DNA of 38,368 bases from an uncultured bacterium. Lineage in GTDB: Bacteria; Hydrogenedentota; Hydrogenedentia; Hydrogenedentales; JAEUWI01. Of this stretch, positions 1 through 34,734 are shown piece after piece. Each line of letters opens with the position of its first letter. Within the stretch, counting starts at the first letter, position 1. The stretch is taken from the NCBI GenBank assembly GCA_963977445.1, contig CAXBPH010000031.1, positions 1 to 38,368 of the forward strand, read 5' to 3'. The translations under genes and the position numbers were made by a program. Under the pieces are notes generated by a model. It was not told the origin of the DNA. It was given only the letters and a program-made list of their open reading frames with translations, and searched no databases.

Positions 1-2
1 AA

Positions 3-7400: not shown

Positions 7401-7417
7401 CAACATGAAAAACACGC

Positions 7418-7457: not shown

Positions 7458-7599
7458 GTGTGAAAACAAGATTTACGACCACTGAAAGCTCAAATAGACA
7501 AGAAGAACTCCCGGCTACTTGCAATCCTTCGGTTGCTCATATTGCTCCAGTGTGATACAGTCACCATAGATGATCTGTCAATAAATTAACCGTTGCACG

Positions 7600-7620
7600 T
7601 CCTGTAGTTCATATACAGGA
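7600..7620. promoter_or_regulatory. Possible operator palindrome upstream of anmK
   Basis: TCCTGTA-N7-TACAGGA perfect 7-bp inverted repeat in AT-rich intergenic DNA about 180 bp before the anmK start. Confidence 0.3.
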
Positions 7621-7798
7621 TTGTAGGTCACGGGTCAGATTAACGACTACGTAATCAGTCTTCAGGAGAACGACGGGCAATTCGGTTTCGTGTGCCAGAC
7701 GATTCATTACCGATGCATCCCAGCGGTTTATTCCGCAGCGGATACGTCCATGCAATGAAAGCCCGGTAACGCTACCGACCGTTGAGGGAAAGGCCTTT

Positions 7799-8956: not shown

Positions 8957-9145
8957 TCGGCGTTATATAAAGAACCGGCTTACAACGCGCTGAAAGTGAA
9001 TGGCGTCGATTGCGGAGCTTGTCGCACAGCGCAGCCTCCCCATTTTTGGACGTACCAATTCTGGTCCCGGAATTAACGGAAAGCCTGACGGCCACGCCAC
9101 CGCGCAATCCCATTCCCGCACGCTCGATACCCTGACCTACCTTGC

Positions 9146-10615: not shown

Positions 10616-11928
10616 TCAGCGCTCCGGGCGATTTCAGCCATGGCACCATCGACGGCGTCTAAGGTCTCGTCGATGTCGCGGTCACTGTGGACCGTAGAAA
10701 CAAACCAGATGCCGAAGGAAGTCACCTGGACTCCCCGGGCTTGCAGGGCCAGACCGAATCGCTGGCCCAATGCCGTATCTGCCTGCTGTGCGGATCGCAT
10801 ATCCACCACAGGATTCGCCGTGGCGGGCACAAAAGACGTACTGAACACCGAAGAAACGCCCCGCAGTTCGAGGGGCAACCCATGACGTTCCGCCAACACC
10901 AGCAGCTCATCCGAAAGGCGGCGCCCCGCATTGTGGGCCAACGTCAAGGCGGCCCCATCGTCGGCATACATATGTTCCAACGCGGCCCGCGTTCCGGCCA
11001 TGATAAGGGCACTCGCATTATAGGTGCCCGAGTGGACCGTGCCCGTCGTGAAGTGTTCCATGAGGTCGGCCCGCCCCGCCAGAGCCGCGACCGGCAGCCC
11101 CGCGCCAAGGGCCTTCGCAAAGGTGGCCAGATCGGGGGTAACACCGAAGTATTCCTGGGCACCACCCGGTGCCACACGAAAGCCGGTGATAACTTCATCA
11201 AATATCAGCACCACCCCATGGGCCGTGCAAAGGGCGCGAAGTTTTTCCAGAAACGCCTGCTCCCCCGGAATAAGTCCCGAGGCCGAAGCAAAAGGATCAC
11301 ATATCACGGCCGCGAGCGTATCCCCACATTCAGCGAAGGTAGCTTCAAGCAGTTCCACATCATTCCAGGGCCGCACCACCAGGCTTGCCGCATAATCAGC
11401 GCATTGTCCCTTCGATGAGGGCCGCATATGTGGAGCGTGACGGGGACCCAGGTCCGTTTCGGCGGTTGGTGGGTTCCAGGCGATGGTATCCAGCCAACCG
11501 TGATAGTGCCCTTCAAAACGCAGGATTTTATCCCGCCCCGTCGCACTCCGCGCCAACCGCAAGGCCCCATGCACCGCTTCCGATCCGGTGGAACTGAATC
11601 GAACCATTTCGGCGCAGGGAATATGAGCCACCATCAACTCGGCGGCAACAATCTCATCCTCACACTGGCCGGCATAGAGAATGCCCCGTGATACCTGGCG
11701 CTGTACCGCCTCGACCACGCATGCCGGCGTGTGGCCCAGCAACATGGGCCCCTGACCGAGGTTGTAGTCGATAAATTCATTGCCATCCACATCCCAGAGG
11801 CGGGCATCTTTTCCATGGCTATAGTGTCGGGGCACCGGTTTGGTCAACGACCGTACACCACTATTGACGCCGCCCGGGATAACCCGGCAAGCGCGCTCGT
11901 GCCAAACGGTCGATTTACTGAAATCCAT
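10612..11928 (-). CDS. Class III PLP-dependent aminotransferase (GSA-aminomutase-like paralogue)
   Basis: 'PGGVNSGVR', 'DVDGNEFID', 'GHYHGW', 'LIFDEVITGFR', PLP lysine in 'ATFAKALGAG'. It departs from typical HemL motifs (DYVGSWGP, TLSGNP), so it is not called hemL. Confidence 0.85.
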   Translation of the reverse strand: MDFSKSTVWHERACRVIPGGVNSGVRSLTKPVPRHYSHGKDARLWDVDGNEFIDYNLGQGPMLLGHTPACVVEAVQRQVSRGILYAGQCEDEIVAAELMVAHIPCAEMVRFSSTGSEAVHGALRLARSATGRDKILRFEGHYHGWLDTIAWNPPTAETDLGPRHAPHMRPSSKGQCADYAASLVVRPWNDVELLEATFAECGDTLAAVICDPFASASGLIPGEQAFLEKLRALCTAHGVVLIFDEVITGFRVAPGGAQEYFGVTPDLATFAKALGAGLPVAALAGRADLMEHFTTGTVHSGTYNASALIMAGTRAALEHMYADDGAALTLAHNAGRRLSDELLVLAERHGLPLELRGVSSVFSTSFVPATANPVVDMRSAQQADTALGQRFGLALQARGVQVTSFGIWFVSTVHSDRDIDETLDAVDGAMAEIARSAE

Positions 11929-12018
11929 AGTACTTTTCCTATTACTTCAAAAACTTAAAACGGGGCGTACGCGACGTATTTAATTCACGAGGGGCTCGCT
12001 GTGCGTCCATTTATACGT

Positions 12019-13734
12019 TCACTTCATCACATTCAAACGCCGAATCTTATCTCGGGCGATCCAGGCCACACCAGCACCACCGATGCCCAGGAGGGCACCC
12101 ACGCCGATAGACAACAGCCCCGCCTGTATCGAAGCCGTCAACACGACCGCAATGACCATCAGGGCACCAAGCAAGGCGCAGGTCAAACCGATTATCTGCA
12201 TCGCATAGTAGCCGTCGCGCATATCGGGAGCGGCCTGCGTTGACGTAGACACCCCACTCAACCCACCCAGAAACTCGTCCACCAGCGCCTGTTTCGCCGG
12301 CGAATCGGGCCACACGAGGCTCCCAATCACAAGACCAAGGGCCGTAGGAATCAGGGAAATCCACGTCAGGTACGGCACCGTTCCCAGGTAGCCCAGGCCC
12401 TCGCTATAACTGGCCACATAGGCCCCGATACCGAGTAGGGCTCCCGACAGGAACCCGGCCACCGCCCCCCGACCCGATGCCCGCCGACTCAGCAGCCCGG
12501 CCGCCATGGGCAAGGCCACGGGCGGCAACAGCACCGAGAAAAGGCGGGCCATGATTTTCACCAGGTCTTCCAAATCATCGGTGTACACCAGCACCAGCGC
12601 CAGCCCCATGGCGAGGACGCCCACCACCAGCGTGGAAATACGCGCAATCCGAAGCAGGATATAATCCGGCGCATCCGGCCAGAACAGGCGTTTGATAATA
12701 TCGTTGGTGATTACCGAAGCCAGCGCGTTGTAGTCGCTCGAAAGCATGGACATGGTGGCCGAAAACATGGCAGCAATAACCACCCCCATGAGGCCCACCG
12801 GCAGGAGCATGCGGCACACCAGGGGATAGATTTCATTCGCATCAGCCACCCCCGGCAGAAACTGCGTCGCCGCAATCGCCGGCCAGAAAAGTAAGGGCGG
12901 ACCCAACACGGTCAACACGGCCACCGTATAGCCCACCCGCCGGGCATCTCGATCACTTCGCGCCGCATAATACCGCTGCACATAGGGCCACTTCGTGGCG
13001 TAGGTCAACGCCAGAATCACGGAGAAGGACAAAAGCCAGGGCCAGGAATAGGTGTCGTTGGTGATGTTGCCATAACCTTCGGGCAGTCCCTGCAGCACCG
13101 TCATCACACCACCCGCTTTGGACGTTGCCAGGGGAGCCAGCACGAGCACCGCCACCGCCATGACGATAAACTGAATAAAATCGGTAATCATGACCGCCCA
13201 GAGTCCGCCCAGCAAGGTGTAGGCCAGCATGATGGTACCACAGCCAACAATCGCCCACGCCTTCGCTTCCGTGCCTTCAAAACCCAGGCTGACCGTAATC
13301 ATGGCACCGATAACAAAGAGCTTGAGGGCATCGTCGAGAACGATAAGGGGTACGCCGAACCAGCTGAAGCCCTGCCGAATCGTCGCGTTGTAGCGGGTTT
13401 CTAGATACTCCACCGGACTCGTGGTCGCGGCCCGACGCCAACGGCCGGCCAGGTACCAGGCACTCAACAGGCAGCCGGGAACGGAAAACCACCAGACCGA
13501 TACGGCAACAAAGCCATATTGATAGGCCAGCGCGGAATAAGAAACGAAGGTAAAGGCGCTGAAGGTCGTCATATAAAGCGAGATACCGGCGAGCCACCAC
13601 GGCACCTGCCCGCCCCCGCTGAAGAAGTCGGTGAGATTCTTCATCTTCCGGGCGTAAATAACGCCAATGCCCAACATTACCGCAAAAAAGCCTGCGAGAA
13701 TTATGTAATCCGTAACGGTCAGTCCCTGTTCCAT
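12019..13734 (-). CDS. Sodium:solute symporter (SSS) family transporter
   Basis: Many TM helices; 'DFFSGG..VPWW..GISL..T.FSA', 'YT.LGGLWAV..TDFIQ', 'QRYYAARS', 'AAMFSATMS.LSS'. Confidence 0.92.
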   Translation of the reverse strand: MEQGLTVTDYIILAGFFAVMLGIGVIYARKMKNLTDFFSGGGQVPWWLAGISLYMTTFSAFTFVSYSALAYQYGFVAVSVWWFSVPGCLLSAWYLAGRWRRAATTSPVEYLETRYNATIRQGFSWFGVPLIVLDDALKLFVIGAMITVSLGFEGTEAKAWAIVGCGTIMLAYTLLGGLWAVMITDFIQFIVMAVAVLVLAPLATSKAGGVMTVLQGLPEGYGNITNDTYSWPWLLSFSVILALTYATKWPYVQRYYAARSDRDARRVGYTVAVLTVLGPPLLFWPAIAATQFLPGVADANEIYPLVCRMLLPVGLMGVVIAAMFSATMSMLSSDYNALASVITNDIIKRLFWPDAPDYILLRIARISTLVVGVLAMGLALVLVYTDDLEDLVKIMARLFSVLLPPVALPMAAGLLSRRASGRGAVAGFLSGALLGIGAYVASYSEGLGYLGTVPYLTWISLIPTALGLVIGSLVWPDSPAKQALVDEFLGGLSGVSTSTQAAPDMRDGYYAMQIIGLTCALLGALMVIAVVLTASIQAGLLSIGVGALLGIGGAGVAWIARDKIRRLNVMK

Positions 13735-14227: not shown

Positions 14228-16279
14228 TCAGAGGTCGCCATCGTCCTCATCAGAGGTCGTAAGGACATACCGATCCACGCCGCCATCGTCCGATACGGTT
14301 TCTTCCCAGGCGTCCATCGCAGACTCGACGCCCTCAACCAGAACCCCATGCTGCTTCGCGAGTGCAACAAACTCACCATCGGTCCAGTCACCCCGCTGGA
14401 TTAACGCATAAAGTGCATCGCAATAGGGGTCTGCCACCCGTTCCGCAACCATGGGTGACGTTTCCGGCGCCGTGACCTCTCGGCCATACCAGATGCCCCG
14501 CTTACCCAAGGCAGCACCCCTAAGGGGCTTGACCCCTTGCATGGCCACCCCCAGGCGATAGGCAAACGCCTTGGTTTCCCGCATCAGTTGGGCAAGCCTA
14601 TCCCGATTAACCTGCTCTCCATCGGGAGACAACAGCGTAGAGAACAGCTCGTCGAGCCGGACAACCGAAATGCCCAGGGCCCGGTAAGCCCGCCGCAATG
14701 CCAGACCTTCGTCGTTCTGAATGGCGAAATTGGCCGCAGCAACGCCGACGAGAAACTTCCCGGCTTCGACACACTCCTCCTCCGTCAAAATTGCTTTCAC
14801 CCGCCGGGTGAGACTGGTAAGTTTGGGTGGAAACTTAATCAGCCGACGCCGCAACACACCAAGGCGATGTTTGTCGTCGTCATTGAAATGATAAAGTGAA
14901 TTTACGATCTCCGATACGTGCAGCACCTCCACATGGTCCACCGTACCGTCCACCTCGGCGATGGACGTGCCCAACGCCAACAGCAACACCCCCGCCAGAA
15001 AACAGGGCTCACTATCGGCGTGCCGTGCCGTAGCACGGGTCAGCACGACGCGCTCACGGGCCTTGAAAGGTCTTAGCAGATTCGCGGGACTGGGCAACAA
15101 TTCGTACCCGGCCGCCAAAGCCTTTTCCGTAACGTCTATGCTCTCCAACAGGGATACAGACTTCTTTCCCCAGGGAAGTCCCAGACACGTCGCCACTGCG
15201 GATACCGGCACGACCACCCGTCCTTTGGGGCTTGCATAGGTGTCAATCAGGCCCTGCCAGTCGCTCCCCCCTTCCTGTTCCGCTTCACATTCGCGCCAGA
15301 GGGAAATGAGCGGCTCGAACTGGCCATAGGCCCCCATGACGTCGGCCGATGTCACCGACCAAAGGGACCCAAAGTGTTTCCAGCTCTGCAACGAAGGATT
15401 GATGGGACGATACTTCCAGGTCTGTTGTTCTGCGGCAATCTCCAGCAGCAGCCCTTCACCAAATTTTTCTTCGTAGGCGGCGGTGAAGCGCCGGGCAAAG
15501 GCGTCGCCCTCGGTAGCATAACTTCCCTTGTGGGAGCAGCGAATATCCTGCCGCGCAATTTCGAAGGCCAGGGCCGCCGGCAGCGGCTTCCCTCGCTCGT
15601 AGAGCCACGTGGTGGCCACGGCCAGGGCGTCCCCATGCAAGGGTGCCGTCTGCTGCATGAAAAGCCGCTGAAACCAGGCGGGTTTGAGACGTTCAATGCC
15701 TTTGGTCGCGAAAAGGAAGGCCGCCAACCGTGAAACGCTGCTGAAGAAGGAGGGTGCATCTTCGTAGTGCTTCACCAGGCTCATCAACACCCGCAAGACA
15801 TCTTCCGGGTCCCCCTTATCGATGAGGGCATAACGCTCCAGACCATAAAAGTAGAGAAAGGCGTAGTTCATGTCGTCAAGCGGCAGCCTTCGCCCCGAAG
15901 CCAGCCAGGCGAGGTAATTTCCCCGCTGGGTTGGTGTCAGCGCCGAATAACTCGTCCAGTGCGCGACGGGCTGCCCCTCCTCCCAGGAAGGCTCACCAAT
16001 GGGCAGGCCCAGGTCGATGCAGGACGTTTCCGTGTCCGCCGCCGGGCCCTCTGAGGTGTAGAGCATAGGCCGTGGTATGGATTGGCCCCCATGACTGAAG
16101 GTGGCACCAAGCCCATGCCAGAGGAGCGCCGCACCAGCAGCGGGTTCCTGCCCTTCCCCTTCCACAACGGCCCAGGGGATGGTCCAGCGCTCGTCAACGT
16201 CGTTCATGGCGGGGCCCACATCGGGTATGCCGACCGTTTCGGCGGCGTCTTCCGTGGCCTTGTCGTCTGGATTGGTCAT
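14228..16279 (-). CDS. TerB-N / TerB / TerB-C domain protein
   Basis: TerB-N motif 'SYSALTPTQRGNYLAWLASGRR...YAFLYFYGLE'; TerB motifs 'AEVDGTVDHVE' and 'VAAANFAIQNDE...LRRAYRALG'; TerB-C-like 'W..GEFVALAKQHGVLVEG...AMDAW'. Confidence 0.8.
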   Translation of the reverse strand: MTNPDDKATEDAAETVGIPDVGPAMNDVDERWTIPWAVVEGEGQEPAAGAALLWHGLGATFSHGGQSIPRPMLYTSEGPAADTETSCIDLGLPIGEPSWEEGQPVAHWTSYSALTPTQRGNYLAWLASGRRLPLDDMNYAFLYFYGLERYALIDKGDPEDVLRVLMSLVKHYEDAPSFFSSVSRLAAFLFATKGIERLKPAWFQRLFMQQTAPLHGDALAVATTWLYERGKPLPAALAFEIARQDIRCSHKGSYATEGDAFARRFTAAYEEKFGEGLLLEIAAEQQTWKYRPINPSLQSWKHFGSLWSVTSADVMGAYGQFEPLISLWRECEAEQEGGSDWQGLIDTYASPKGRVVVPVSAVATCLGLPWGKKSVSLLESIDVTEKALAAGYELLPSPANLLRPFKARERVVLTRATARHADSEPCFLAGVLLLALGTSIAEVDGTVDHVEVLHVSEIVNSLYHFNDDDKHRLGVLRRRLIKFPPKLTSLTRRVKAILTEEECVEAGKFLVGVAAANFAIQNDEGLALRRAYRALGISVVRLDELFSTLLSPDGEQVNRDRLAQLMRETKAFAYRLGVAMQGVKPLRGAALGKRGIWYGREVTAPETSPMVAERVADPYCDALYALIQRGDWTDGEFVALAKQHGVLVEGVESAMDAWEETVSDDGGVDRYVLTTSDEDDGDL

Positions 16280-17321: not shown

Positions 17322-17406
17322 GGAACTCTTTCATTGCTAGTGTGGGTGAAGATTGGAGTTTTAAAAAAGCTGAAGTACGTAACGCAGCTTTCCGCCGCAA
17401 CCAAAC

Positions 17407-17800
17407 GTCATTCCCGCGCAGGGGGCTGTTGATTTAAGGTGCAGAGTACGAGTAAAGCCTACCAACCTGTATTTAGAGCCCACAATGTCATTCCCGCGCA
17501 GGGGGCTGTTGATTTAATGTGCGGAGTACGAGTAAAGCCTACCAACCTGCATTCAGAGCCAACAACGTCATTCCCGCGCACGCGGGAATCCAGTAGGTAT
17601 GCTCGGTTTCTGTGTTCGCGTTACTGGATCTCCGCCTTCGCGGAGATGACGGCAACGTGCTTTCATTCCATGCGGTAGGCGGCGTTGAATAAACCAACAG
17701 CCCCGCAGGCGGAAATCCAGAGGGTATCATCGGTGTCTATGTCCGGGTTACTGGTTCCCCCCGTTTCCACCACGGCGGATCTACGACGCGAGGATGACGG
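17407..17800. repeat. Nested cluster of CGTC-type REP palindromes (GTCATTCCCGC-N4-GCGGGAATCCAG), with an 80-bp tandem duplication
   Basis: GTCATTCCCGCGCA at 17407, 17487 and 17567 (period 80; the two 80-mers are 74/80 identical). Intact inverted doublet at 17567-17650. Second doublet half at 17709-17800 with the same 30-bp spacer length (spacers 22/30 identical). Confidence 0.9.
17502..17704. mobile_element. 203-bp non-autonomous MITE inserted into a REP hairpin loop
   Basis: TIRs GGGGCTGTTGATTTA (17502-17516) and TAAACCAACAGCCCC (17690-17704), 14/15 match. GCAG on both flanks (17498-17501, 17705-17708). Removal restores GTCATTCCCGC-GCAG-GCGGAAATCCAG. Confidence 0.8.
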
Positions 17801-17856: not shown

Positions 17857-17884
17857 ACCGTCAACCGTCAATCGTCAACCGTCA
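17857..17884. repeat. Heptamer tandem repeat (ACCGTCA)x4 overlapping the ATPase stop codon
   Basis: accgtca accgtca atcgtca accgtca, read directly from the sequence. Confidence 0.8.
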
Positions 17885-20800
17885 ACTGCTTTCCCGTCCT
17901 GCAACTCATCCAGCAAGACCTGATAGCGCTCGAGATTCTGGTCCATGAGGGCCTTGAGGCGCTTCATCTCTTCCGTCTGCTCGCGGGTCTCTTTAAAGAT
18001 AGGTGCGAGCCATCCCTGCATCAGCTTGAACTGCTCGCTCATCACGCCAATCAGCGCGCGGGGCACCTTGGAAACCACCTCCACCGACGTGGTGTGGGGC
18101 GTGTCGTCACGGCTACCCATAGACGCAACGCCCGATCGCATGGCATCGCAAATGTGCTCTAGTCCATCGTTGATACTGCCCAACTGGAGCAATACCTGGG
18201 CCACGCCCTGGTCATCACCGAGGCCTTTCATCTTGAGATTCTTCGTAAAGGTCTTCTTGATACTGGCCCAACGTTCGGCCTCGGTCTCATCGAGACTGCC
18301 CGTAAGCTCCTTGAACTTCAGCATGTTGGACTCAGCACCGCTGGTCAGCGTCTGTGAGTCCCCCTCATAGTTACCGTGAATCAACGTCGTCAGCTCACCA
18401 TCATTCATAATATCCACCACCCGCTCCGCGATACGGTTCATATTACGATAGGAGCCCTGCAGCTTGAAGGAAGGTTCGGTCCGGTAGTCGTCTTGAATGC
18501 CCGCCGAACGGATATATTCCTTGTTTACTTCCAACACCACGTCACGCACGACCAGTAGTTTCTTCATGACGTTGACCATGCTGTTGATCTCATCGAGAGA
18601 ATAGTTCCCTTTGAGTTCGATGCCTTCACGGCTGTCCGTCTCGGCAGCACGAATAATGGCGTAGACATCGTCCTGACTCTTGGAAGCGAGTTGGTTCAGA
18701 ACAGAGTTCGATGTCAGGCAGTTTTCGAGATAACTCATCTCAAAGTCGTCCGCGCTGTCGCCGATAATTTCACCCAGGTTGTAGGTGTCGGCACGGTTGG
18801 CCAGCATGTCGGGAATCTGAAACTTCTCGCCACTTTCCGTGTAGGGGTTGCCCGCCATTACGACGGCAACTTTCTTGCCCCGCAAATCATAGGTACGGGT
18901 ACGCCCCTTATGGATGCCCTCAATCTTCCGCTGGGCATCGCACAACGATATGAATTTCTGCAAAAATTCCGGATTACAATGCTGAATATCGTCCACATAG
19001 AGCATCACGTTGTCGCCCATCTCCAGGGCGAGATTCAGCTTGGCCAACTCTTCACGGGCGGCCGCATTGGTCGCTTCCGAGGGATCCAGCGAGGTCACCT
19101 GATGGCCCAGGGCGGGACCATTGATCTTCATGAATATCAACCCGAGGCGATTGGCGATGTACTCCATCAAGGTGGTCTTACCATAGCCCGGAGGCGATAT
19201 GAGCAAGAGCATACCCATACGGTCCGTTCGCTTCTGATCCCCCGCCGCACCAATCTGCTTGGCCAGATTATCGCCAATGAGAGGCAGATACACGTTATCA
19301 ATGAGCTTATTCCGCACAAAGCTCGTGAGGACACGGGGCTTAAATTCATCCAGGCGTAAGGCCTCGGTCTCTTCTTCTACGATGGCCTTTTTACGGCTCA
19401 CATAGGTTTCATAACGCGGCACCGTCTCATTACGATAAGCCGTGAGTTTCGACATGAAGGTATTGAAGTTGAGCAGATAGCCCCCCCCCTCGACAAGGGA
19501 ATGGCTCCCCACAAGCCCCGACAACCGGGCAATGGACGAGGCATGGAGGACCCGTGTTATGTCGTGGTCTCCCGTCAACAACAGGCCCGCCACTTCGTCG
19601 ATGTAATCCCGCTCCACCGCGTCTTCACGACTGCGAACAAAGGCTCCGACCCAATCGCGACAAAGAAGAAAGGCACTGTTGGGATTCTCGCGAGTTTCCG
19701 CAAGGGACGTCGCGAATCGCTCCGCGAAATTGTGCTTCTGGAGATGCATATTGAATTGCTGAAAAATGGTGTCGGCATTTTCACTGATGACGCTGCCCCC
19801 GCCCTTCACAAGAATCTCAAAGAGATACCGGGCCGCCTCGTCAATCCACAAGGCGTCGAATACATCCGTCTCGGTCACGTAGGTACCAAGCAGCTGACGC
19901 AACTCCGCCGTGTAGTGCCGTTGGGCCTCCGCGTCGACGAAGAGTTCGCGAATGATGCCAAAGCCCTGCAGGGTGTTGGCGATACGTAGCTTCGCGATGT
20001 CATCGGCATACTGAAACCAGAACACCGTTGCCATGGCACGGGCCTTCGGGTGGAAGGCCAGCAGTCCAATAGAGGCTTCCATTTCGAGCAACGCCCGGAG
20101 GATATGCGCACCATCGGCATCGTGCACCCCTTTGACGTAGCCCTCGGAATAACGCGAGCCCATGAACTTCTGCACGTAGGCCTGCAAGTCTTCCTGGGAC
20201 AAGGCACGAAGCTCGCTCAATTCCATCCCACCCGGCTCGCGAACCGATTGGAGCAGTATATAAGCCAGGTACTCGGCGCGGTAGACGTCTCCGCTTTCCG
20301 AGACCACTTCCTGTGCCCAGAGATCACGGGTTGAGAGAAAGGGCTCGTCTTTTATGGCGTCAAAGTAGTTGGTGCCCGCCAGGTGAAAGTACATATCGTC
20401 ATCGCGAAATACGGTCGTGAGAGCAAGCTCAAAAGTATTCACGGTGAACTTGTGGGCACCGAAACGAATAATATTTTCGCCTTCTTCGAATAGTTCCTGA
20501 CGATCCTTAAGCTGGCGGGCTGCGTCTTCACGGATGGTCTTCAGCCGACTTTGGACATCGTCCATCTTCACGCTGTCGCCCAGCTCACCCATTTCCTGGA
20601 TGATACCACGGACCTTATCGATCATCAGGTCGGAGGCGAAATACCCATGAATTTCCTCGACCGTCTTAAACGTAGATACCCGACTCTTAATTCCATTCAG
20701 AATACGCTCCGCCGCCTGCATCAGGGCCGTCACACGTTTGTTCTGTTTCTCCTGAAGCTGAATCTTGACGGATTCAAAGGCGTTGTAGGCCTCCTCCCGC

Positions 20801-23037
20801 TTTTCCGTGAGTTGCATAACGAACTCATCGAATTCGGCGAAGCGCCCTTCCAATTCTTCAATCTGGACCATAACGCGGGTCAGATACTGCTCACATTTCG
20901 GAACCGTGTCGCACAGATCGATATAGTTGGCCACCGCCTGATTCAAAAGCTTAATCTGCGAGTTAAACTCGGCGATACCTTCCGATTTCCCCAATTCCCG
21001 GGTCTTGTTCTTCAATTGAGAGCGGGTCTTATTCAGGGTGGCAAAGATTTCGGAAATAGAATCAATAATGGTGGTGCGCTGGGTCGCGTCTTCAATCTTC
21101 AGATTACTGACCACGTCGATCAGCATCTCCAGGTCGGCCGATTGTTGATCCACCAATTCGGCCAATGCCCGTGCTTCCGCGACCTTGGCCAGACCATCAA
21201 TTTGCGCCGCGTGTTCCTCCACCGCAGTCGCATAAGGCGTGAGCGACTCGGGACGCAGCAGAAACTCCACGCATCGTTGTCCCAGTTTTTCCGCCTCGTC
21301 CGCCAGGGTGGTCTGGAGGGTTTCGACCGCCGCAAGATCCATATATTTGAGATCCCGCAACGCAATGACCTTGCCGCGAATGGTGCGGACCGCCGTCAGG
21401 GACTCCACAAAATCATGGATGTTGCCAAAAGGCTTGCTGGCGATGGTCTTGACGATCGTGTCCGCCTCGGCAGCGGCCGTGTTCAGTTGCTCTGTGGAAT
21501 TCCGCCGGGCATTGGAAACCTTATCAAACTCACTGATGGCCGACTGGGCCGCCTCTCGGATGACCTGAAGATCTTCCTTCAGGTTGAACGTCTCGTCGCT
21601 GCCAATCCAGTGGTACACGTCAAACATGACGCCAACTTTCTTGGCAATATCTCCGTAGAGATTCGCGTAACTGTCTTCTTTCGCAATGAGGTTGAGCACC
21701 TCATGGCAGTCCGCCATACCCCGAACGATTTCCTTGTTACCAATTTTGTAGAGCATCGAATCGGACTGGGCAGAAATCGGGAGATCGGCGCTGCGATAGG
21801 GCGTCTGCCAGATCTGGAGCGCATGATTCCGCTGCGGCTCGGGCGTCCCTTTGAAATAGACCAACTCACCATCTTTAAAGAGGGAATAGCCGTTGCACGG
21901 GATAGGCGTGTTCACCGTCTGGGTAATTACATTGTAGGAAAGGAGAACATAGTCGCCAAGATCACGACTATAGAAAACGAAGAGGTAATCCTCCCCGTTG
22001 GTCGAAGGAATGCGCTTCTCAAAGAGCATATCCTTGAAGCCACCACCAAAAGATTTCTGTTCACCCGTCTGCAACACATAGCCGTTGGCGTAAATCAGGC
22101 CATGCTCTTCGGGCAAAAAGACACAGGACTCCTGAATCGCATCGAGACGATAGACCTTCTGGTTTTTCTCGCAGTACACAAAATAGCGCCAGGCATTTTC
22201 CTGGTAGGGTTTAATCTTCAGGAGAATGAGGTTGCCCACGATGGCGTAGAAAAACTCGGCGTCATCCAGCGTCTGGTCGGCATTCTCCACGTCCTCGGCA
22301 TAAATACCAAGGCCCGAAGCCGTGTTGTTCTCTATCTTGATGGTCAGGTCGCCGCCCACCGTCTCCACGAAGAGCCGGTCTTCGATGGATACGTGGGGAT
22401 GCTTGCCATGGTACTGCATATCCCGGTGGGTGCGTTTCCACTCAAAATCATGCTGAGACGGAAAGCAGTAGTCGTGTTCACTACGATTGTCCAGATAGCT
22501 GAGGCTATTCTCACCGACCTGCCATTTGAAAACCTTAATGTCCCCTATCCCTTTCCCCACGCGGAACACCATAAACAGGTGTGGCCCGATAACGGAGAAC
22601 TTGGCGAAGACCGTATTCTTGTAGTACTTGAAGAGTTCCTGAAAATCCCGTTCAAAATTCTCATCGTTAATCAGGTCGAGGGGTTCCCGCACCAGGGTGT
22701 GGGCCTCTTCCATGCGATAGACGGAAAAGACGTCCTCCAGGGCAATTTGCGACTTGAGCCCGATGTGTACGTTATACCCGAAGATAAAGCGTTCGCCAAT
22801 GGGAACAATATCCCGGGCGATGCAGCTGTTGTCGGTGCTCAGGTGTTCCGTCGTAAGCAGCTTGGTCTCGATAGCGCCAAAGACATCTTTGCGCGCCCCA
22901 TTGAGTTGCTCCAGGCGGCCCTGCAGGGCGCGCCCCGCCTTGGCGAGGCGGTTACGTATGATTTCATAAGTACCCGCCTCGAGGCCCGGGGCCGTGGCTT
23001 CGACACCATCCGGTGTCGTTGCTTCCGGTTCAGCCAT
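17875..23037 (-). CDS. Large AAA+ ATPase, DUF3686-type (often auto-annotated 'DNA repair ATPase'): beta-rich N-terminus, long coiled coil, C-terminal AAA+ module
   Basis: 1720 aa; Walker A 'LLISPPGYGKTT', Walker B-like 'MLYVDDIQH', sensor-1 'MAGNPYT', Arg finger 'LANRAD'; N-terminal 'GTYEIIRNRL'; strong RBS AAGGAGG. Confidence 0.85.
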   Translation of the reverse strand: MAEPEATTPDGVEATAPGLEAGTYEIIRNRLAKAGRALQGRLEQLNGARKDVFGAIETKLLTTEHLSTDNSCIARDIVPIGERFIFGYNVHIGLKSQIALEDVFSVYRMEEAHTLVREPLDLINDENFERDFQELFKYYKNTVFAKFSVIGPHLFMVFRVGKGIGDIKVFKWQVGENSLSYLDNRSEHDYCFPSQHDFEWKRTHRDMQYHGKHPHVSIEDRLFVETVGGDLTIKIENNTASGLGIYAEDVENADQTLDDAEFFYAIVGNLILLKIKPYQENAWRYFVYCEKNQKVYRLDAIQESCVFLPEEHGLIYANGYVLQTGEQKSFGGGFKDMLFEKRIPSTNGEDYLFVFYSRDLGDYVLLSYNVITQTVNTPIPCNGYSLFKDGELVYFKGTPEPQRNHALQIWQTPYRSADLPISAQSDSMLYKIGNKEIVRGMADCHEVLNLIAKEDSYANLYGDIAKKVGVMFDVYHWIGSDETFNLKEDLQVIREAAQSAISEFDKVSNARRNSTEQLNTAAAEADTIVKTIASKPFGNIHDFVESLTAVRTIRGKVIALRDLKYMDLAAVETLQTTLADEAEKLGQRCVEFLLRPESLTPYATAVEEHAAQIDGLAKVAEARALAELVDQQSADLEMLIDVVSNLKIEDATQRTTIIDSISEIFATLNKTRSQLKNKTRELGKSEGIAEFNSQIKLLNQAVANYIDLCDTVPKCEQYLTRVMVQIEELEGRFAEFDEFVMQLTEKREEAYNAFESVKIQLQEKQNKRVTALMQAAERILNGIKSRVSTFKTVEEIHGYFASDLMIDKVRGIIQEMGELGDSVKMDDVQSRLKTIREDAARQLKDRQELFEEGENIIRFGAHKFTVNTFELALTTVFRDDDMYFHLAGTNYFDAIKDEPFLSTRDLWAQEVVSESGDVYRAEYLAYILLQSVREPGGMELSELRALSQEDLQAYVQKFMGSRYSEGYVKGVHDADGAHILRALLEMEASIGLLAFHPKARAMATVFWFQYADDIAKLRIANTLQGFGIIRELFVDAEAQRHYTAELRQLLGTYVTETDVFDALWIDEAARYLFEILVKGGGSVISENADTIFQQFNMHLQKHNFAERFATSLAETRENPNSAFLLCRDWVGAFVRSREDAVERDYIDEVAGLLLTGDHDITRVLHASSIARLSGLVGSHSLVEGGGYLLNFNTFMSKLTAYRNETVPRYETYVSRKKAIVEEETEALRLDEFKPRVLTSFVRNKLIDNVYLPLIGDNLAKQIGAAGDQKRTDRMGMLLLISPPGYGKTTLMEYIANRLGLIFMKINGPALGHQVTSLDPSEATNAAAREELAKLNLALEMGDNVMLYVDDIQHCNPEFLQKFISLCDAQRKIEGIHKGRTRTYDLRGKKVAVVMAGNPYTESGEKFQIPDMLANRADTYNLGEIIGDSADDFEMSYLENCLTSNSVLNQLASKSQDDVYAIIRAAETDSREGIELKGNYSLDEINSMVNVMKKLLVVRDVVLEVNKEYIRSAGIQDDYRTEPSFKLQGSYRNMNRIAERVVDIMNDGELTTLIHGNYEGDSQTLTSGAESNMLKFKELTGSLDETEAERWASIKKTFTKNLKMKGLGDDQGVAQVLLQLGSINDGLEHICDAMRSGVASMGSRDDTPHTTSVEVVSKVPRALIGVMSEQFKLMQGWLAPIFKETREQTEEMKRLKALMDQNLERYQVLLDELQDGKAVDG

Positions 23038-23097
23038 GTGCGATCCTCCTTGTTGGATTCATCACGTCGTCTGCCAATAGTTCCCGCAAAGTGCGGT

Positions 23098-25104
23098 TCA
23101 GCAGACTTGGCTGAGGGTTTTATCCGCAAATCCCAATTGCTGGGCCAGGCCCGCAAGAATCTGAAACTCATTCGCATCGCCCGCATCGTCGGCCATATTC
23201 TTCATCTTGCTAAGCAGGGCCGCAATGGACAGATTTTTTACGTCTTCACTACCGATAGCAAACTGGCTCGTAAAATGCTCCATCCGCGCCCGGAAGTACT
23301 CGGGGTCACCGTTGAAGAACGTATTCTTCACGTCCGTCAGGGCCTTGCTGTTGTCGACCCAGCGGTCCATCGCCTTACCCGACGTAATGGCCTGGGTGAT
23401 TTTATTGAAGAACTCCGTCTCCCCACCCACAATGTCGATCTTGGCCGTCTTGAGGGCCTGTCCGATAACCTCCGCCTGACGCGCTGCAATCTCACGCTGT
23501 GCGTCGATAGTGGCCAGGTCGATGGTCTTCTCTTTTTCCAGTTTGAGCTTGAATTCTTCGTGCTCCCGTCCGACCGCGTTGAAGAGCTTCATCGCCTCGG
23601 CCTTGTCCGTAATACCCTTGGCATCGGCCTCAAACTTAAGCTGCATGACATTCGCTTCGGCCGTACCCTGCTTCTCGACCGCCACCGCGTGGGCTTCCAT
23701 GCCCTTCGCTTCGGCAACCGCTTTGCTCTCGATGACCGTAGCCTCGGCGAGCCCCGTTGCAGCCTGTTCGGCCGTCACACCTTCTGCCAGCATCTTCTTG
23801 CCGGCTGCCTCGCGCTGACTGGCATCCCGCTTGGCTTCGGCAGAAATAACCGCCTCTTCGGCACTGAATCGCGCCGCGTCCCGCCGGGCTTCGGCCGCCT
23901 TGATCTCTTTCACCAGGGATTCCTGGGCATCTTTCTCGGCGGCCGTAATCGCCACCTGCTTCGCACGGTCCGCCGTAGCAAATTCCTGGGTGTCCTTGAT
24001 GCGTTCCTGCTCTTCCACCACCGCACGCTCTACGATGACGCGTTCGCGAATCACATCTTGAATCGCCTTCTTCTCCACCTCGATGGCTTTCTCTTTCTCA
24101 ATCTCCGCCAGACTCACAACACGCTCGCGCTCGGTGGCCTCCAGCATGCGGTCTTTCTCTACGCGTTCCTTCTCCACCTGGTCCGTACGCTCTTTGTTGC
24201 GCATGGCCACGATGACCTGTCGGTCTTTGTTCTCGTTGGCAATGGCCACCTCTTCTTCGGTGGTAATGCGCGCACGCTCCGACTTGAGACGTTCTTCTTC
24301 TTTGATTTTCGCCGCTTCGGCCTGTTCGCGGGATTGGACCGATTCAATTTCCCGAATCTGCTTCGCTTCCGCTTCCGCCTGCTGCTTTTCTAGTTCCAGG
24401 ATAGCTTCCCGCGCTTCCACGTCCTGTTTCTTGATGGTCTTCTCTTTGTCACGCGTAATGCTATTGGCCAGAATCTGCTGCTGGGCCGTCAGGTCGGTAA
24501 TCTTCTTGATACCTTCCGAGTCCAGGATATTGTGGGGATCCAGCTGATTCATGGGCGTCTGTTCAAGATAATCGATGGCCGCATCGTCGAGGATGTAGCC
24601 ATTCAAATCACGACCAATGATTTTTAGAATCTCTTCTTTGAATTCTTCCCGCGACGTGTAGAGGGCCACAAACTCAAACTTCTTACCCACACTCTTCAGC
24701 GCTTCTGAAAATTTCGCCTCAAAGAGCTCTTCCAGCTTCTCGCGCTCGGAGGCACGGGCCGCACCAATAGACTGAGCCACTTTCAACACGTCTTCTTCGT
24801 TGTTGTTTACCCGAACGAAGAAGGCCACCTTTATATCTGCCCGAACATTGTCCTGGCAGACTAGCCCCTGGGGACCATGGCGAAAAATCTCAATCCGCCG
24901 CACCGAGATATCCATGACCTCGGCCTGACGGACCAAGGGCAACAGAATCGCTTTGGAGAAGTGAACCGTCGGATTCTTACCACCGGTAATAATCAGCGCC
25001 GTGCCCTGCTCCACCTTGCGCCAACAACGAATCACCATAATCATGACCGCAAAAGCCACAACAATCAGCACGAACACTATGGTGCTCAGCAAACCATACA
25101 ACAT
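23098..25104 (-). CDS. Flotillin-family SPFH/Band-7 membrane protein (YqiK-like)
   Basis: N-terminal TM helix; SPFH core 'LVCQDNVRADIKVAFFVRVN...FSEALKSVG'; long E/A-rich coiled coil with AEA repeats; RBS AGGAGG. Confidence 0.9.
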   Translation of the reverse strand: MLYGLLSTIVFVLIVVAFAVMIMVIRCWRKVEQGTALIITGGKNPTVHFSKAILLPLVRQAEVMDISVRRIEIFRHGPQGLVCQDNVRADIKVAFFVRVNNNEEDVLKVAQSIGAARASEREKLEELFEAKFSEALKSVGKKFEFVALYTSREEFKEEILKIIGRDLNGYILDDAAIDYLEQTPMNQLDPHNILDSEGIKKITDLTAQQQILANSITRDKEKTIKKQDVEAREAILELEKQQAEAEAKQIREIESVQSREQAEAAKIKEEERLKSERARITTEEEVAIANENKDRQVIVAMRNKERTDQVEKERVEKDRMLEATERERVVSLAEIEKEKAIEVEKKAIQDVIRERVIVERAVVEEQERIKDTQEFATADRAKQVAITAAEKDAQESLVKEIKAAEARRDAARFSAEEAVISAEAKRDASQREAAGKKMLAEGVTAEQAATGLAEATVIESKAVAEAKGMEAHAVAVEKQGTAEANVMQLKFEADAKGITDKAEAMKLFNAVGREHEEFKLKLEKEKTIDLATIDAQREIAARQAEVIGQALKTAKIDIVGGETEFFNKITQAITSGKAMDRWVDNSKALTDVKNTFFNGDPEYFRARMEHFTSQFAIGSEDVKNLSIAALLSKMKNMADDAGDANEFQILAGLAQQLGFADKTLSQVC

Positions 25105-25197
25105 AAGACCATCCTCCTGTAGAGTACTAAAGTCACTATCATCTGGACGGGAAATACCCCTGCATTTCCGCCCTCCCGCAACATCAAATTATGTATG

Positions 25198-25875
25198 CTA
25201 TACCTCTAAAGTGCCTGCCTTATTCGATGAACCAGAAAAGGGCGCAACGATGTAGACACCATCATCATCTTTCGCGATTACCACGGCCTCTTCCCCTTTT
25301 GTGAGGGCAACACCGTCTCGCGTTTTAACGTTGAGTAGTAGCGGCGACCCCTGCAAGGGCACCTCCGCCTGACCGTGTTTTTCGGTGACTTCGAGAGAAC
25401 TCACGACACACAGCTGACCGATAACATGGACAACATCACTACTTTCATCGAAGGCTTTCTTGAGCAAGGGCACGAAGGGCATGAGGACAAGCTTTGTCGC
25501 CACAAAGCCACCGACAACAATCGGTATCACCAGAAATCCGGCAATCAGAACACTCGTGTTGCTCAAATAGTGGTTTGAAAGAATGGAGATGGCCCACATC
25601 GCGGTGCTGAGCACCGAGGCGACCACGGTCACGGGCACCTCGGCCGCGTAGACAAATTTCATCAGGGCCCCGAGAATACTCCCCCCTCCCTCAGCGCCAC
25701 CATCTACATCCAGGTCACCCCCGTCACCGTCCAAATCACCATCAAAATCAAAATCGAGCAAATCAGAACCGAAGACCCCCACCAGATATAAGATCCAGTA
25801 GAACAGGGATATACCAAAAAGGATGGTATAAGGCAGGTTTACTGGTCGTATGGACTCATGAAACAGCTCAATCAT
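25198..25875 (-). CDS. YqiJ/DUF1449-like (NfeD-type) membrane protein with C-terminal OB fold
   Basis: TM helix, Asp/Gly-rich linker (DFDFDGDLDGDG), further TM helices, then 'VIGQLCVV...GQAEV...LLLNVK...KGEEAVVI'. Start moved to the ATG at 25875 after an AGAGGG RBS. Lies directly upstream of a flotillin gene. Confidence 0.8.
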   Translation of the reverse strand: MIELFHESIRPVNLPYTILFGISLFYWILYLVGVFGSDLLDFDFDGDLDGDGGDLDVDGGAEGGGSILGALMKFVYAAEVPVTVVASVLSTAMWAISILSNHYLSNTSVLIAGFLVIPIVVGGFVATKLVLMPFVPLLKKAFDESSDVVHVIGQLCVVSSLEVTEKHGQAEVPLQGSPLLLNVKTRDGVALTKGEEAVVIAKDDDGVYIVAPFSGSSNKAGTLEV

Positions 25876-26211
25876 AATCAGCCCTCTGCAGCACACGTCG
25901 CGCGTCTGGATATAGTTGCCAGATACGAACGTTTGCCATCACGTTTCGCGGAGATACCCTCGCACTTCCCAATCGAGTGAAATCCCGACGCCCAAGAAAG
26001 TACCATCTTTACATGAACCCCTACAGGCGTTCAATGAACAAGCCGGGTCAAACTCCACCGTCCTACTTCGTGTTCGGTGTGCTCTATATACTCCTGAGAA
26101 GGCGGGTTTATTCGTTTTTCGATGGTTACGTTGCTGTCAGGTGCCTTGGGGCCATATCAGGTCTTGTTATAATCCGATTGGCAAGGCGGGTCCACTGGGC
26201 ACCTACACAAA

Positions 26212-26431
26212 GCACCAACAGGGGGTTGGGCATACCCACCACGGCGCGTCTTCGACCTGCCCGACACAAAGCCCACCAAGAGCCCCAACAAGCACGGCGT
26301 GCCATACTACACAAACCCAAAATAACCCAAAATTTGATCTGATGACGCTCGCGTGCTCAGGCCAGCGTCACGCGTGCCCCGGCGCCCACCATGCCCTATG
26401 TGTCGGGCAGGTATGCCCAACCCCCTGTTGG
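26212..26431. repeat. Inverted REP doublet downstream of the RAYT gene (left copy interrupted by a 21-bp insert)
   Basis: CCAACAGGGGGTTGGGCATA[21 bp]CCTGCCCGACACA at 26212-26279 (+) and an uninterrupted reverse complement at 26399-26431; hairpin GGGCA-TACC-TGCCC. Confidence 0.85.
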
Positions 26432-26444
26432 AACACTTTTTAAA

Positions 26445-27125
26445 TCACCGGTAGATCTCGGGAAGAAAATCTGGTGCTTCAAAGTAATAAAATTCGCCGG
26501 AATTAATATTCGCTTCCGCAGGATTGTTCTTGATGTATGAAAAACATCTTACCAGGTTATTCATACTACGCATGAGCCGATCCCAGTTCTCCTGTTGCCA
26601 CAGGGCACCCGAACGGCCCAGGTATTTGTTGATCTGGGCCGCCGAATATCCCTTCCAAGAGCCGAGAACATCCTCTACTTTATGAGTCCCACGCAATTGA
26701 AAAAGTGTATGGACATGATTCGGCATGACCACGAAGTTGCCAATGTCATAGCGCACATGGTCAAAATGGAGTATGGCCTCGGCAACCCGCTGCGAACATT
26801 CTACATCTCGTAAATGGCAAGAGCCATACCCTTGATCCAGCCATCGTTCGATCCGTTGTGGGAATAACCGTCGATAATCCAGGCGTGTGGCACTATCCCA
26901 TGGATACGGGTGGTTCTCGAGCCAGACCGACTTTTCGTCCCGCCAGCGCCGAAGTTTATCCTGGGGCAGGGAGTCCGTAAGGCGCCAAGTGACAAAATAA
27001 AATGCACCGTCGAGTTGCCAATGTGGCAGGTGGCGCTCATGAATCTCAACCGGGGAATCGGAACGGAGAAATGGATCGTGATAGGCTGCATTCTGATCGT
27101 TGTCCGAGTTGGCCTCGTGTCGCAT
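26445..27125 (-). mobile_element. REP-associated tyrosine transposase (RAYT, IS200-like Y1 HUH endonuclease)
   Basis: 'RHLPHW', 'YFVTWRLTDSLP', HUH motif 'FVVMPNHVH', 'WKGYSA', 'WQQENWDRLMR', catalytic Tyr in 'YIKNNP'. ATG at 27125 after GGAGG. Flanked on both sides by the same palindromic repeat. Confidence 0.88.
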
Positions 27126-27183
27126 ATCCAAGCCCTCCAAGTTGATTAAAATACTAGCGATTCCAGCCCGCTGCTACAAGCGT

Positions 27184-27230
27184 GCACCAACAGGGGCTTG
27201 GGCATACCTGCCCGAGACAAAGCCCACCAA
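27184..27230 (+). repeat. REP copy upstream of the RAYT gene
   Basis: GCACCAACAGGGGCTTGGGCATACCTGCCCGAGACAAAGCCCACCAA is near-identical to 26212-26279 once the 21-bp insert is removed (47 vs 68 bp). Confidence 0.85.
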
Positions 27231-32832: not shown

Positions 32833-34734
32833 ATGGACATCGATGCCAACACGAATCGTGGAAGCAGAACGTTGGGGCCCGTGCACGATCTGGAACGCCA
32901 CCTGCCCTCGGAATGGTGGCGCACCCTTTTCAATGCGGTTTACTTGCAGACCGATGGCGATGTGGTTGAAAACACAGCCAGCACGGAAAGCGACGTAGCC
33001 CTCCTCATTGAGAGTGCCAAGCTCACCCCGGAAGACTCCATCCTGGATCTATGCTGTGGACAAGGCAGACATTCCCTGGAACTGGCCCGGCGGGGTTTCC
33101 CCCATGTTACCGGACTGGATCGCTCCCGTTACCTCGTGCGCCTCGCCCGGAAACGGAACAAGCAACAAGGCCTTTCCGCAACCTTTCGGGAAGGGGATGC
33201 GCGAAAATTCCGTCTCCCCCCGGAGTCCTTCACCTGTGTAGCCGTCATGGGCAACTCCTTTGGCTACTTCGAGCGCTCGGAAGACGATCTTTCCGTACTG
33301 GCGTCCATTTGGCGCGTACTCAAGCCCGGCGGCCGTGTCGTGCTGGACGTCGTTGATGGCAATTGGATGCGGGAAGAATTCGAACCCCGTTCCTGGGAGT
33401 GGATCGACGAAAACCATTTCGTCTGCCGCGAACGTGCCCTCGCCCACGATGGCCAACGGCTTATATCGCGGGAAATCGTCACCCATGCGGAACGGGGCGT
33501 TATCGCCGACCAGTTTTACGCGGAGCGCCTCTACGCCTATAGTGAGCTGGAAGCCCTGCTGAAAAAAGCCGGCTTTTCCGACATTCGCCAGGGCGAAGAA
33601 CCCATTACCCTCTCTGATCGGAGCCAGGACCTGGGTATGTTGTCCCGACGCATCTGCATCGTGGCCTTCAAGCCCGTCAATGTCGTGAAACGTCCCCGTC
33701 GTGGCCCACTCTTTCCAAAGGTCGTCGTATTGCAGGGGGATCCCTCCCTGCCGGACGATGTAAAACGGGAAGGCGTGTTCGCCGAGGAAGACCTCGACAC
33801 CATCAAACGGATGCAAGACGCGTTGGGCTCTCTTACGGAGTATAAATTCTCCTATTGGGATAACCACGGTGGCCTGCTGAAGTTTCTGGAAGAAGAACGA
33901 CCCGATTTCGTGCTCAATCTGTGCGATGAAGGCTTCAAGAACGATCCCTTCAAAGAATTGCACGTCACCGCCGTATTGGAGATGTTTGGCATTCCCTATA
34001 GCGGTGCAGGACCCCGCGCCCTGGGCCTCTGCTATGACAAGGCCCTCGTGCGTTCCGTGGCCCAATCCCTGGATATTCCCGTACCCCTGGAGTCTTTCTT
34101 TGGTGCAGACGACCAGATGGCCACCCTGCCTTCGGTCTTCCCCGCGCTGGTAAAGCCCAATCTGGGAGACAGCAGCCAGGGCATCACCAAAGACGCCGTG
34201 GTCAACAACAAAGAAGAATTCGTCACCTATTGGGAATGGCTGCGCTCGGAATTTCCGGACCGCCCCCTACTCGTGCAGGAATTCTTGAGTGGACCGGAAT
34301 ACAGTGTGGGCGTCGTCGGCAATGTGGGCTCCGGATTTCTTGTACTGCCCGTACTGGAAGTGGATTACTCGGGACTCGATCCCGACCTCCCCCGCATTCT
34401 CGGATACGAGTCCAAATGGGCCCCCGACTCACCCTATTGGAACGATATCAAGTGCAAAAAAGCCGTGCTGGACGACGCCACCCGACGTCAGATTTCCGAC
34501 AATTCCCTGCTCCTTTTCGAGCGCCTGGGCTGTCGCGACTACGCGCGCTTTGACTTCCGTACCGATACGGACGGCTGCATAAAACTTCTCGAAGCCAACC
34601 CCAATCCGGGATGGTGCTGGGATGGCAAGTTGAACCTGATGGCCGACTTTGCCGGGTATACCTACGCGGAATTGCTCTGCCTCATCGTTGAGGCCGCCCA
34701 ACTCCGTTACGGTGCCGCCCCCGCCCATTCCTGA
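32833..34734 (+). CDS. Class I SAM methyltransferase fused to a D-Ala-D-Ala-ligase-like ATP-grasp domain
   Basis: SAM motif I 'ILDLCCGQGRH', 'REGDAR', 'GNSFGYF'; ATP-grasp motifs 'LVKPNLGDSSQGI', 'LVQEFLSGPEYSVG', 'YESKW', 'RDYARFDFR', 'LLEANPNPG'. Confidence 0.88.
   Translation: MDIDANTNRGSRTLGPVHDLERHLPSEWWRTLFNAVYLQTDGDVVENTASTESDVALLIESAKLTPEDSILDLCCGQGRHSLELARRGFPHVTGLDRSRYLVRLARKRNKQQGLSATFREGDARKFRLPPESFTCVAVMGNSFGYFERSEDDLSVLASIWRVLKPGGRVVLDVVDGNWMREEFEPRSWEWIDENHFVCRERALAHDGQRLISREIVTHAERGVIADQFYAERLYAYSELEALLKKAGFSDIRQGEEPITLSDRSQDLGMLSRRICIVAFKPVNVVKRPRRGPLFPKVVVLQGDPSLPDDVKREGVFAEEDLDTIKRMQDALGSLTEYKFSYWDNHGGLLKFLEEERPDFVLNLCDEGFKNDPFKELHVTAVLEMFGIPYSGAGPRALGLCYDKALVRSVAQSLDIPVPLESFFGADDQMATLPSVFPALVKPNLGDSSQGITKDAVVNNKEEFVTYWEWLRSEFPDRPLLVQEFLSGPEYSVGVVGNVGSGFLVLPVLEVDYSGLDPDLPRILGYESKWAPDSPYWNDIKCKKAVLDDATRRQISDNSLLLFERLGCRDYARFDFRTDTDGCIKLLEANPNPGWCWDGKLNLMADFAGYTYAELLCLIVEAAQLRYGAAPAHS

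Follow-up and report, generated by a model that had tools for sequence, protein, structure and literature searches.

Why should an enzyme that databases name 'DNA repair ATPase' be encoded directly behind a flotillin? The question is raised by a three-gene module in a 38,368-nucleotide stretch of DNA from an uncultured Hydrogenedentota bacterium (contig CAXBPH010000031.1 of assembly GCA_963977445.1), which was analysed at its full length and is called the window below. The co-oriented genes, all on the minus strand, encode a YqiJ/YuaF (short NfeD)-like membrane protein of 225 amino acids (aa) counted from an ATG (25198..25875), a YqiK-like flotillin (SPFH) of 668 aa (23098..25104), and a giant DUF3686/DUF7902 AAA+ ATPase of 1720 aa (17875..23037), the bearer of the database name. 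Open reading frame (ORF) coordinates and start-site sequences agree with the layout given in a preliminary description of the window, with gaps of 93 bp (YqiJ-like/flotillin) and 60 bp (flotillin/ATPase) and purine-rich ribosome-binding sites (GAGGG, AGGAGG and AAGGAGG) before the three starts; an in-frame GTG at 25896 would extend the first protein to 232 aa. As the ATPase is almost always found with one type of flotillin, it likely acts on the flotillin scaffold and not in DNA repair. We favour, with a probability of roughly 60%, a reading in which the ATPase docks on a flotillin membrane cage and drives ATP-dependent remodelling of the cage or of its protein contents, probably when the envelope is under stress.

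Searched singly, neither the membrane protein nor the flotillin gave a Pfam or NCBIfam match, so the labels that the preliminary description had attached to both genes needed testing. Both held up in family alignments: the YqiJ-like family matched E. coli YqiJ with an E-value of 8e-10 and YqiJ_N was matched by 36 of 49 members, and the flotillin family matched E. coli YqiK with an E-value of 2e-40 across 401 columns, with Band_7 matched by 5 of 58 members. The YqiJ-like protein has hydrophobic segments at residues ~14-40, 67-100 and 109-127 (about three transmembrane helices), an Asp-rich loop and a soluble C-terminal domain that, judging by the YqiJ/NfeD family, probably adopts an OB-fold; a sequence search of solved structures gave nothing for this protein. 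The Asp-rich loop was considered as an ATPase-specific ligand and rejected, being present in ATPase-free YqiJ homologues and weak in distant linked ones. The flotillin comprises one N-terminal transmembrane helix (7-25), an SPFH domain (~28-197), a long helical wall and a C-terminal cap region, and its sequence gave a weak QmcA match (E-value 0.0065) and nothing beyond among solved structures. By analogy with the SPFH family, it probably makes an oligomeric dome or cage on the membrane; a flotillin dome of 44 subunits has been reported (PMC13000311). Some Bacteroidota loci carry additional short SPFH-only genes (~170-190 aa), placed next to or in between the genes for YqiJ and the full-length flotillin (L030:4891-5442, L053:4141-4710 and G443:C323:4204-5139).

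The partnership of ATPase and flotillin, suspected in the preliminary description together with a proposal for a neighbourhood survey of DUF3686 ATPases, was borne out by that survey. A GTDB scan confirmed 178 relatives, and analysis of the best 80 loci, which span 10 named phyla, placed a flotillin upstream of the ATPase in 67 of 74 informative cases, so that the homologues are mostly SPFH-linked; the other seven show no flotillin within the upstream sequence at hand (1.2 kb or more), and six of the 80 were too short to judge. Where the position ahead of the flotillin could be judged, YqiJ occupied it in 57 of 58 loci. The same flotillin subtype is kept elsewhere in six of the seven unlinked genomes (the draft genome G441 gave no match) and was found in two of three short loci checked, G442 being the third. 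Five unlinked genomes retain both ATPase and flotillin, which share their nearest relatives on both trees. One genome (G135) has a module that is fully scattered yet retained: at L127:2351-4439, a 572-aa gene and a short ORF split yqiJ from the flotillin gene, and pspA and the ATPase gene lie on other contigs.

Paired whole-genome searches of 687 genomes gave the same picture. The ATPase was found in 10 of 135 Hydrogenedentota, and the identical 10 carry the flotillin; in a Bacteroidota sample, 12 of 301 genomes have the ATPase and the same 12 have a flotillin 56-62% identical, 14 others having flotillins of only 26-41% identity and no ATPase; in a Planctomycetota sample, ATPase and flotillin coincide in 32 of 251 genomes, and eight others have flotillins of only 29-34% identity and again no ATPase. 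Hence the 54 ATPase genomes are exactly those with a flotillin at least 53% identical to the window copy, and the 22 genomes bearing only distant flotillins have no ATPase. A quick tree, in which long branches were flagged, has one branch (Shimodaira–Hasegawa-like approximate likelihood-ratio support 98) that splits 76 linked flotillins from 10 ATPase-free ones. A mirror-tree correlation of r 0.65 over 69 pairs was not taken as evidence of binding. A DUF3686 partner was absent from all 14 control genomes, E. coli included.

The module genes are single-copy and are kept in 9 of 9 genomes of the window's genus. Copies also occur on plasmids and chromids: of 13 matches, the nine examined (36-51% identity; Pseudomonas, Hymenobacter, Deinococcus, two Streptomyces, Halomonas, Vibrio, Nonomuraea and Proteus) have the flotillin directly upstream in all nine cases and YqiJ in eight. 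No phage-borne copy was matched among 50,697 phage records.

We then asked what the ATPase itself resembles. Its Pfam matches are DUF3686 at 38-476 (E-value 4e-185), DUF7902 at 598-681 and AAA_5/AAA at 1277-1402, and no nuclease, helicase, protease or DNA-binding family scored above cut-off in the Pfam/NCBIfam scan, in line with what the preliminary description had noted for the first three. No transmembrane helix is predicted and every domain is net acidic. Sequence matches to solved structures are confined to the P-loop region. The protein was modelled in two halves with AlphaFold2, residues 15-900 (68 sequences; mean predicted local distance difference test score, pLDDT, 88; predicted template modelling score, pTM, 0.63) and 861-1660 (77 sequences, pLDDT 91, pTM 0.80). 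In the N-terminal half, residues ~59-411 (21805..22863, minus strand) form a predicted WD40-like beta-propeller, for which Foldseek returned WD40 matches with low template modelling scores. The propeller is inserted in a predicted four-helix bundle that combines the N-terminal helix with residues ~434-510, with VIA helical-bundle matches covering model residues 5-496. Beyond it, residues ~511-848 (20494..21507, minus strand) are predicted to form a rod of four spectrin-like three-helix bundles; the chain of bundles replaces the long coiled coil of the preliminary description. The rod matches include spectrin, plectin and alpha-actinin at Z 9.3-10.5, a range common for helical bundles generally. 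The middle domain (~890-1225) is predicted to be helical and has no fold assignment within the 861-1660 model, and an ESM Atlas search with residues 420-1240 gave no usable match.

The C-terminal AAA+ module (residues ~1236-1580; 18298..19332, minus strand) is MoxR-like in its predicted fold. Its nearest structures are CbbQ2 (Z 17.9, root-mean-square deviation 4.0 over 253 residues) and NorQ (Z 17.0, 3.9 over 241), followed by dynein/midasin at Z 13-14 and Vps4 at Z 11-12, and its top Foldseek match is likewise of the MoxR type. Walker A (GYGKTT, 19171-19188), Walker B (D1349-D1350, 18988-18993), sensor-1 N1397, arginine finger R1415 and sensor-2 R1531, all within the module on the minus strand, show no variation across the 62 aligned homologues. 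The Walker B motif of the window reads YVDD, flagged as atypical from the outset, and a wider sample showed DD in 127 of 142 representatives, the remaining 15 being unparsed. As this Walker B lacks the catalytic glutamate, we file the ATPase as MoxR-like and not as a member of MoxR. The AAA core is the best-conserved part of the protein, with a column conservation of 0.83-0.90 and 77-81% identity across phyla, in a DUF3686 family of at least ~8,000 sequence clusters. At L082:7881-12714, the ATPase gene is split into several ORFs beyond residue ~1180 (frameshifts or assembly errors). No vWA domain was found in the three module proteins by Pfam scan, and none was recognised by eye among the neighbours in the 30 largest clusters of the 80 loci, where no Pfam scan was run and unlinked vWA genes were not sought.

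Length comparisons suggest where the two proteins could meet. The lower wall of the flotillin (residues 198-440; 23785..24513, minus strand) is 243 aa long in 59 of 64 ATPase-linked flotillins (265 in four and 247 in one), compared to 219-247 residues in ten ATPase-free flotillins, and an alignment-free measure of the wall gave a single spacing in all 59 of the 76 linked flotillins that could be measured. Residues specific to the linked subtype form a dense patch at 315-376, within the lower wall, making this a candidate docking zone. The ATPase arm is likewise constant, at 838-843 residues in all but three of the 39 sequences that could be measured. The upper wall (residues 441-515; 23560..23784, minus strand) varies from 64 to 202 aa, mainly by 11-residue steps. 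Across 39 loci its length is negatively correlated with that of the ATPase C-terminal tail (Spearman -0.62, uncorrected for phylogeny), Bacteroidota having long flotillin walls and short ATPase tails and Planctomycetota the opposite. The extreme C-terminal domain of the flotillin is disfavoured as a universal docking site, measuring 48-59 aa in three distant linked flotillins compared to ~110. Because the upper wall is variable and some linked C-termini are short, the likely ATPase contact is the SPFH base or the lower wall.

These features can be assembled into a mechanism. By analogy with SPFH families, the flotillin would assemble into a dome-like cage that sits on the inner membrane, on the cytoplasmic side, and has YqiJ at its base, and by analogy with MoxR families, the ATPase would form a six-membered ring with six propeller-tipped arms, in which the propeller may take the place of the vWA adaptor used by other MoxR ATPases. 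The propeller could grip the fixed-length lower wall, the SPFH base or a client inside, letting the ring pull, and ATP turnover would then open or dismantle the cage or pull caged membrane proteins; what is pulled may be the cage or a membrane protein enclosed by it. In its most specific form, six propeller-tipped spectrin arms of ~840 residues would be length-matched to the 243-residue lower wall, and the motor would open the cage or extract membrane proteins without a protease, a vWA adaptor or PspA; we put this version forward tentatively, as a doubtful possibility. If true, such a length-matched motor would amount to ATP-driven turnover of an SPFH microdomain. The module bears on how SPFH/flotillin cages are opened, loaded or dismantled, and its three-gene, PspA-free form is the minimal unit in which to ask whether a soluble AAA+ motor turns over such a cage. 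The comparative data single out flotillin 315-376, propeller 200-260 and rod 640-860 as surfaces of interest, and the subtype-strict co-occurrence, PspA independence, spectrin-like arm and fixed wall length render the mechanism easier to test but do not prove it.

Several observations weigh against the cage-remodelling reading. The three search centres were picked for carrying the module and related genomes are not independent, so the co-occurrence is a pattern and not a statistic, and co-inheritance indicates a shared pathway, not contact. Two draft ATPase-bearing genomes of unstated completeness (G441 and G442) gave no flotillin match. The pTM of 0.63 for the N-terminal half makes the overall shape of the arm uncertain, and the fixed lengths could stem from ordinary folding constraints in each protein. 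Walker B carries Asp where AAA+ enzymes usually carry the catalytic Glu, and hydrolysis may therefore be slow. In P. aeruginosa, deletion of the flotillin gene paFlo3 led only to ~20% less biofilm, with no oxidative-stress, motility or pyocyanin phenotype in the experiments described (PMC13086221).

Alternatively, the ATPase may be a nucleotide-switched scaffold, an ATP-bound ring that braces or templates the flotillin cage via fixed-length arms with little pulling. The invariant DD in place of DE, the predicted spectrin-like rod and the fixed arm and wall lengths are consistent with such a role, but sensor-1, arginine finger and sensor-2 are also invariant and the AAA core is the best-conserved part, as expected of an enzyme that cycles. 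In DnaA, a DD Walker B does not preclude hydrolysis, and we consider the scaffold unlikely. The ATPase could instead be an analogue of Vps4 that recycles polymers of PspA (bacterial ESCRT-III), the flotillin only positioning it, and in the window's genome it would have to act on an unlinked PspA. Of 51 informative loci, 14, most of them in Bacteroidota, do have a CesT/Tir-PspA pair upstream (13 found by script plus L088, whose pspA was hidden by an over-long ORF call), as does the P. aeruginosa bac operon, and according to Ravi et al. short operons might rely on a PspA encoded elsewhere (PMC11237479). The other 37 loci, however, have no local pspA. In the window, CesT/Tir (DUF2170) and YjfJ-type PspA are absent, as the preliminary description had noted for pspA, and tblastn with operon-type proteins found none in the genome (94% complete); the unlinked pspA that the preliminary description had proposed to look for was found as a single copy on contig C188, where it precedes small PspB-like ORFs by our reading, and it is not of the operon type. 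The PspA type of the window's relatives is only 27-29% identical to the operon type, and the PspA of the window's genome was not detected with an operon-type query. Moreover, PF04012 was undetected in 8 of 30 module-bearing genomes of unstated completeness that were chosen for having no local pspA, including G458, titled a 7.5-Mb chromosome; PspA presence switches at least 6-10 times on the ATPase tree; and the fold is nearer MoxR than Vps4. PspA is thus dispensable or optional for the module, and its recycling is an improbable function of the ATPase. In one plasmid locus (L093, P. fluorescens pQBR103, 1-12229), a PspA-rhomboid-DUF2491-DUF350-DUF1190-glutathionylspermidine synthase operon has the module fused to it, an arrangement that unites two PspA contexts given separately in passages of Ravi et al. 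(PMC11237479).

The module could also serve in defence against phages or toxins, sensing membrane damage or mending it and so limiting infection, as might be suggested by its patchy distribution in the three phyla, its plasmid and chromid copies, the TerB-domain gene downstream in the window's genus and the induction of PA3728-PA3732 transcription by two phages in P. aeruginosa (PMC12041424). Phage induction is also typical of general Psp-type stress, however, and PADLOC 2.0 gave only weak, partial AAA/coiled-coil matches (E-values 1e-4 to 2e-3). No defence gene recurs among the neighbours of the 80 loci, and a single-copy module kept throughout the genus, with an AAA core so similar across phyla, is unlike fast-evolving defence systems; we regard defence as no less improbable than PspA recycling. 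The database label would be right if the ATPase repaired or translocated DNA and the flotillin linkage were regulatory or incidental. Beside the Pfam and NCBI names, this could draw on MCM and RuvB among the Foldseek matches of the AAA+ module (the RuvB HMM, or hidden Markov model, matches are weak and far below cut-off) and on a divergent regulator annotated as 'LexA-family' in 14 Bacteroidota loci. The MCM matches arise because MCM belongs to the same AAA+ clade, and the regulator, an XRE-type helix-turn-helix protein with a degenerate S24-like C-terminal domain that lies upstream of CesT-PspA (L018, L019, L020, L030 and 10 more Bacteroidota loci), has no conserved catalytic serine motif in the alignment; RecA-type induction is therefore unlikely and an SOS link is disfavoured. 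With no DNA-acting family detected in the ATPase, acidic domains throughout, no recurrent repair gene near the loci and the tie to the flotillin, the preliminary description's rejection of the label was reasonable; a role in DNA repair is very improbable, and the data argue against the name for the whole family.

Upstream of the module, a candidate sigma70-like promoter (TTGAAC-N18-AAAGAT; 26005..26034, minus strand) was read by eye from the alignment and the sequence; it has a comparable position in three related Hydrogenedentota loci and scores under the promoter-scan threshold. A CGAATAAA-like motif at 26107-26114 (minus strand), 70-80 bp upstream of the candidate promoter, is kept in all five aligned Hydrogenedentota loci (window, L012, L016, L017 and L131) and is a possible operator. 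No sigma54 site like that of bac was seen by eye upstream of the operon.

Repeats do lie on both sides of the module, as described at the outset, but they are genome-wide, repetitive extragenic palindromic (REP)-like elements outside the module and delimit no island. On one side, a REP-associated tyrosine transposase (RAYT)/IS200-like gene (26445-27140, minus strand), with seven further copies in the genome at 36-61% identity, is flanked by inverted REP-like palindromes (26212-26279, 26396-26436 and 27182-27230; ~42 REP matches genome-wide). On the other, a second REP-like family is represented at 17404-17765 by two 80-nucleotide tandem copies and by palindromes. Each of these elements has 26-63 matches across the genome, and the repeats and the RAYT gene were rejected as module boundaries. 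Two genes downstream lies a TerB_N + TerB protein of 683 aa (14228-16279, minus strand), found downstream also in five related Hydrogenedentota loci only. Elsewhere in the window, a 2463-aa repeat protein running from the contig edge (9-7400, plus strand), with DUF11, cadherin-like, EF-hand-like and Ig-like domains, is probably a surface adhesin, and an S-adenosylmethionine (SAM) methyltransferase is fused to a D-Ala-D-Ala ligase-type ATP-grasp domain (32833-34734, plus strand).

Finally, we compared the module with known systems. E. coli yqiJ-yqiK shows the same gene order, membrane protein first and then flotillin, and both products are homologous to those of the window. At 553 aa, however, YqiK is the shorter flotillin; it branches outside the clade linked to the ATPase and lacks a DUF3686 partner. 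The MoxR ATPases CbbQ, NorQ and RavA are the best structural matches of the AAA+ module, and RavA contacts partners and lipids via a tip domain; the window ATPase differs from them in its DD Walker B, an N-terminal extension of ~1230 residues and a sequence identity of only 12-14%, and no recurrent vWA gene was recognised among the neighbours inspected by eye. SPFH cages are paired with AAA+ enzymes in HflK/C-FtsH and prohibitin-m-AAA, and in both pairs the enzyme is a protease. The likeness lies in an SPFH scaffold coupled with an AAA+ enzyme; unlike FtsH and m-AAA, the window ATPase has no transmembrane helix and no protease domain and belongs to another AAA+ clade. Compared to Vps4, it has no MIT Pfam match, and with PspA undetected in 8 of 30 genomes an obligate ESCRT-III pairing is not apparent.

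A close counterpart is the P. aeruginosa bacABCDEF operon (PA3732-PA3727; PMC10948618, PMC13086221, PMC2587700); Wallart et al. 2024 (PMC10948618) showed that bacA-F are transcribed as a single unit and that their products accumulate jointly. By synteny with the published descriptions, the window genes probably correspond to bacCDE, although no P. aeruginosa copy was among the matches listed. BacC is a short NfeD, BacD/PaFlo3 was identified by Garcia-Maldonado et al. 2026 (PMC13086221) as an SPFH protein accompanied by a short NfeD, and BacE is co-transcribed downstream; PA3728 is given as an ATPase (PMC8190622). bacA, bacB and bacF are missing from the window locus, and bacB, upstream in the bac operon, encodes PspA, in agreement with the statement in the preliminary description that the P. 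aeruginosa cluster includes a PspA-like gene. The ARC1-3 antagonism clusters of P. aeruginosa were set aside as different genes, PA3729 appearing there only in a pull-down table (PMC8926400). In the literature covered, which excludes subscription papers and supplements, we found no biochemical or structural study of a DUF3686 ATPase and no occurrence of the names DUF3686 and PF12458. The preliminary description had presented the module as a candidate for a mechanistically uncharacterised system; the operon, including its PspA-free form, is already published: Ravi et al. 2024 described an operon of CesT/Tir-PspA, YqiJ/YuaF, band-7/flotillin and a beta-propeller/coiled-coil/AAA+ protein, and found abbreviated operons (flotillin, YqiJ/YuaF and sometimes the ATPase) to be widespread (PMC11237479). 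The window locus has the same three genes and domain architectures, with a YqiJ/YuaF protein of three transmembrane helices directly upstream of the flotillin and an ATPase whose predicted structure has an N-terminal beta-propeller followed by a helical region. It is thus an unexceptional example of a published operon whose mechanism is still a matter of hypothesis, and our analysis adds to the passages of Ravi et al. the AAA+ clade of the ATPase, its specificity for one flotillin subtype, a test of its independence from PspA and a proposal for its mechanism.

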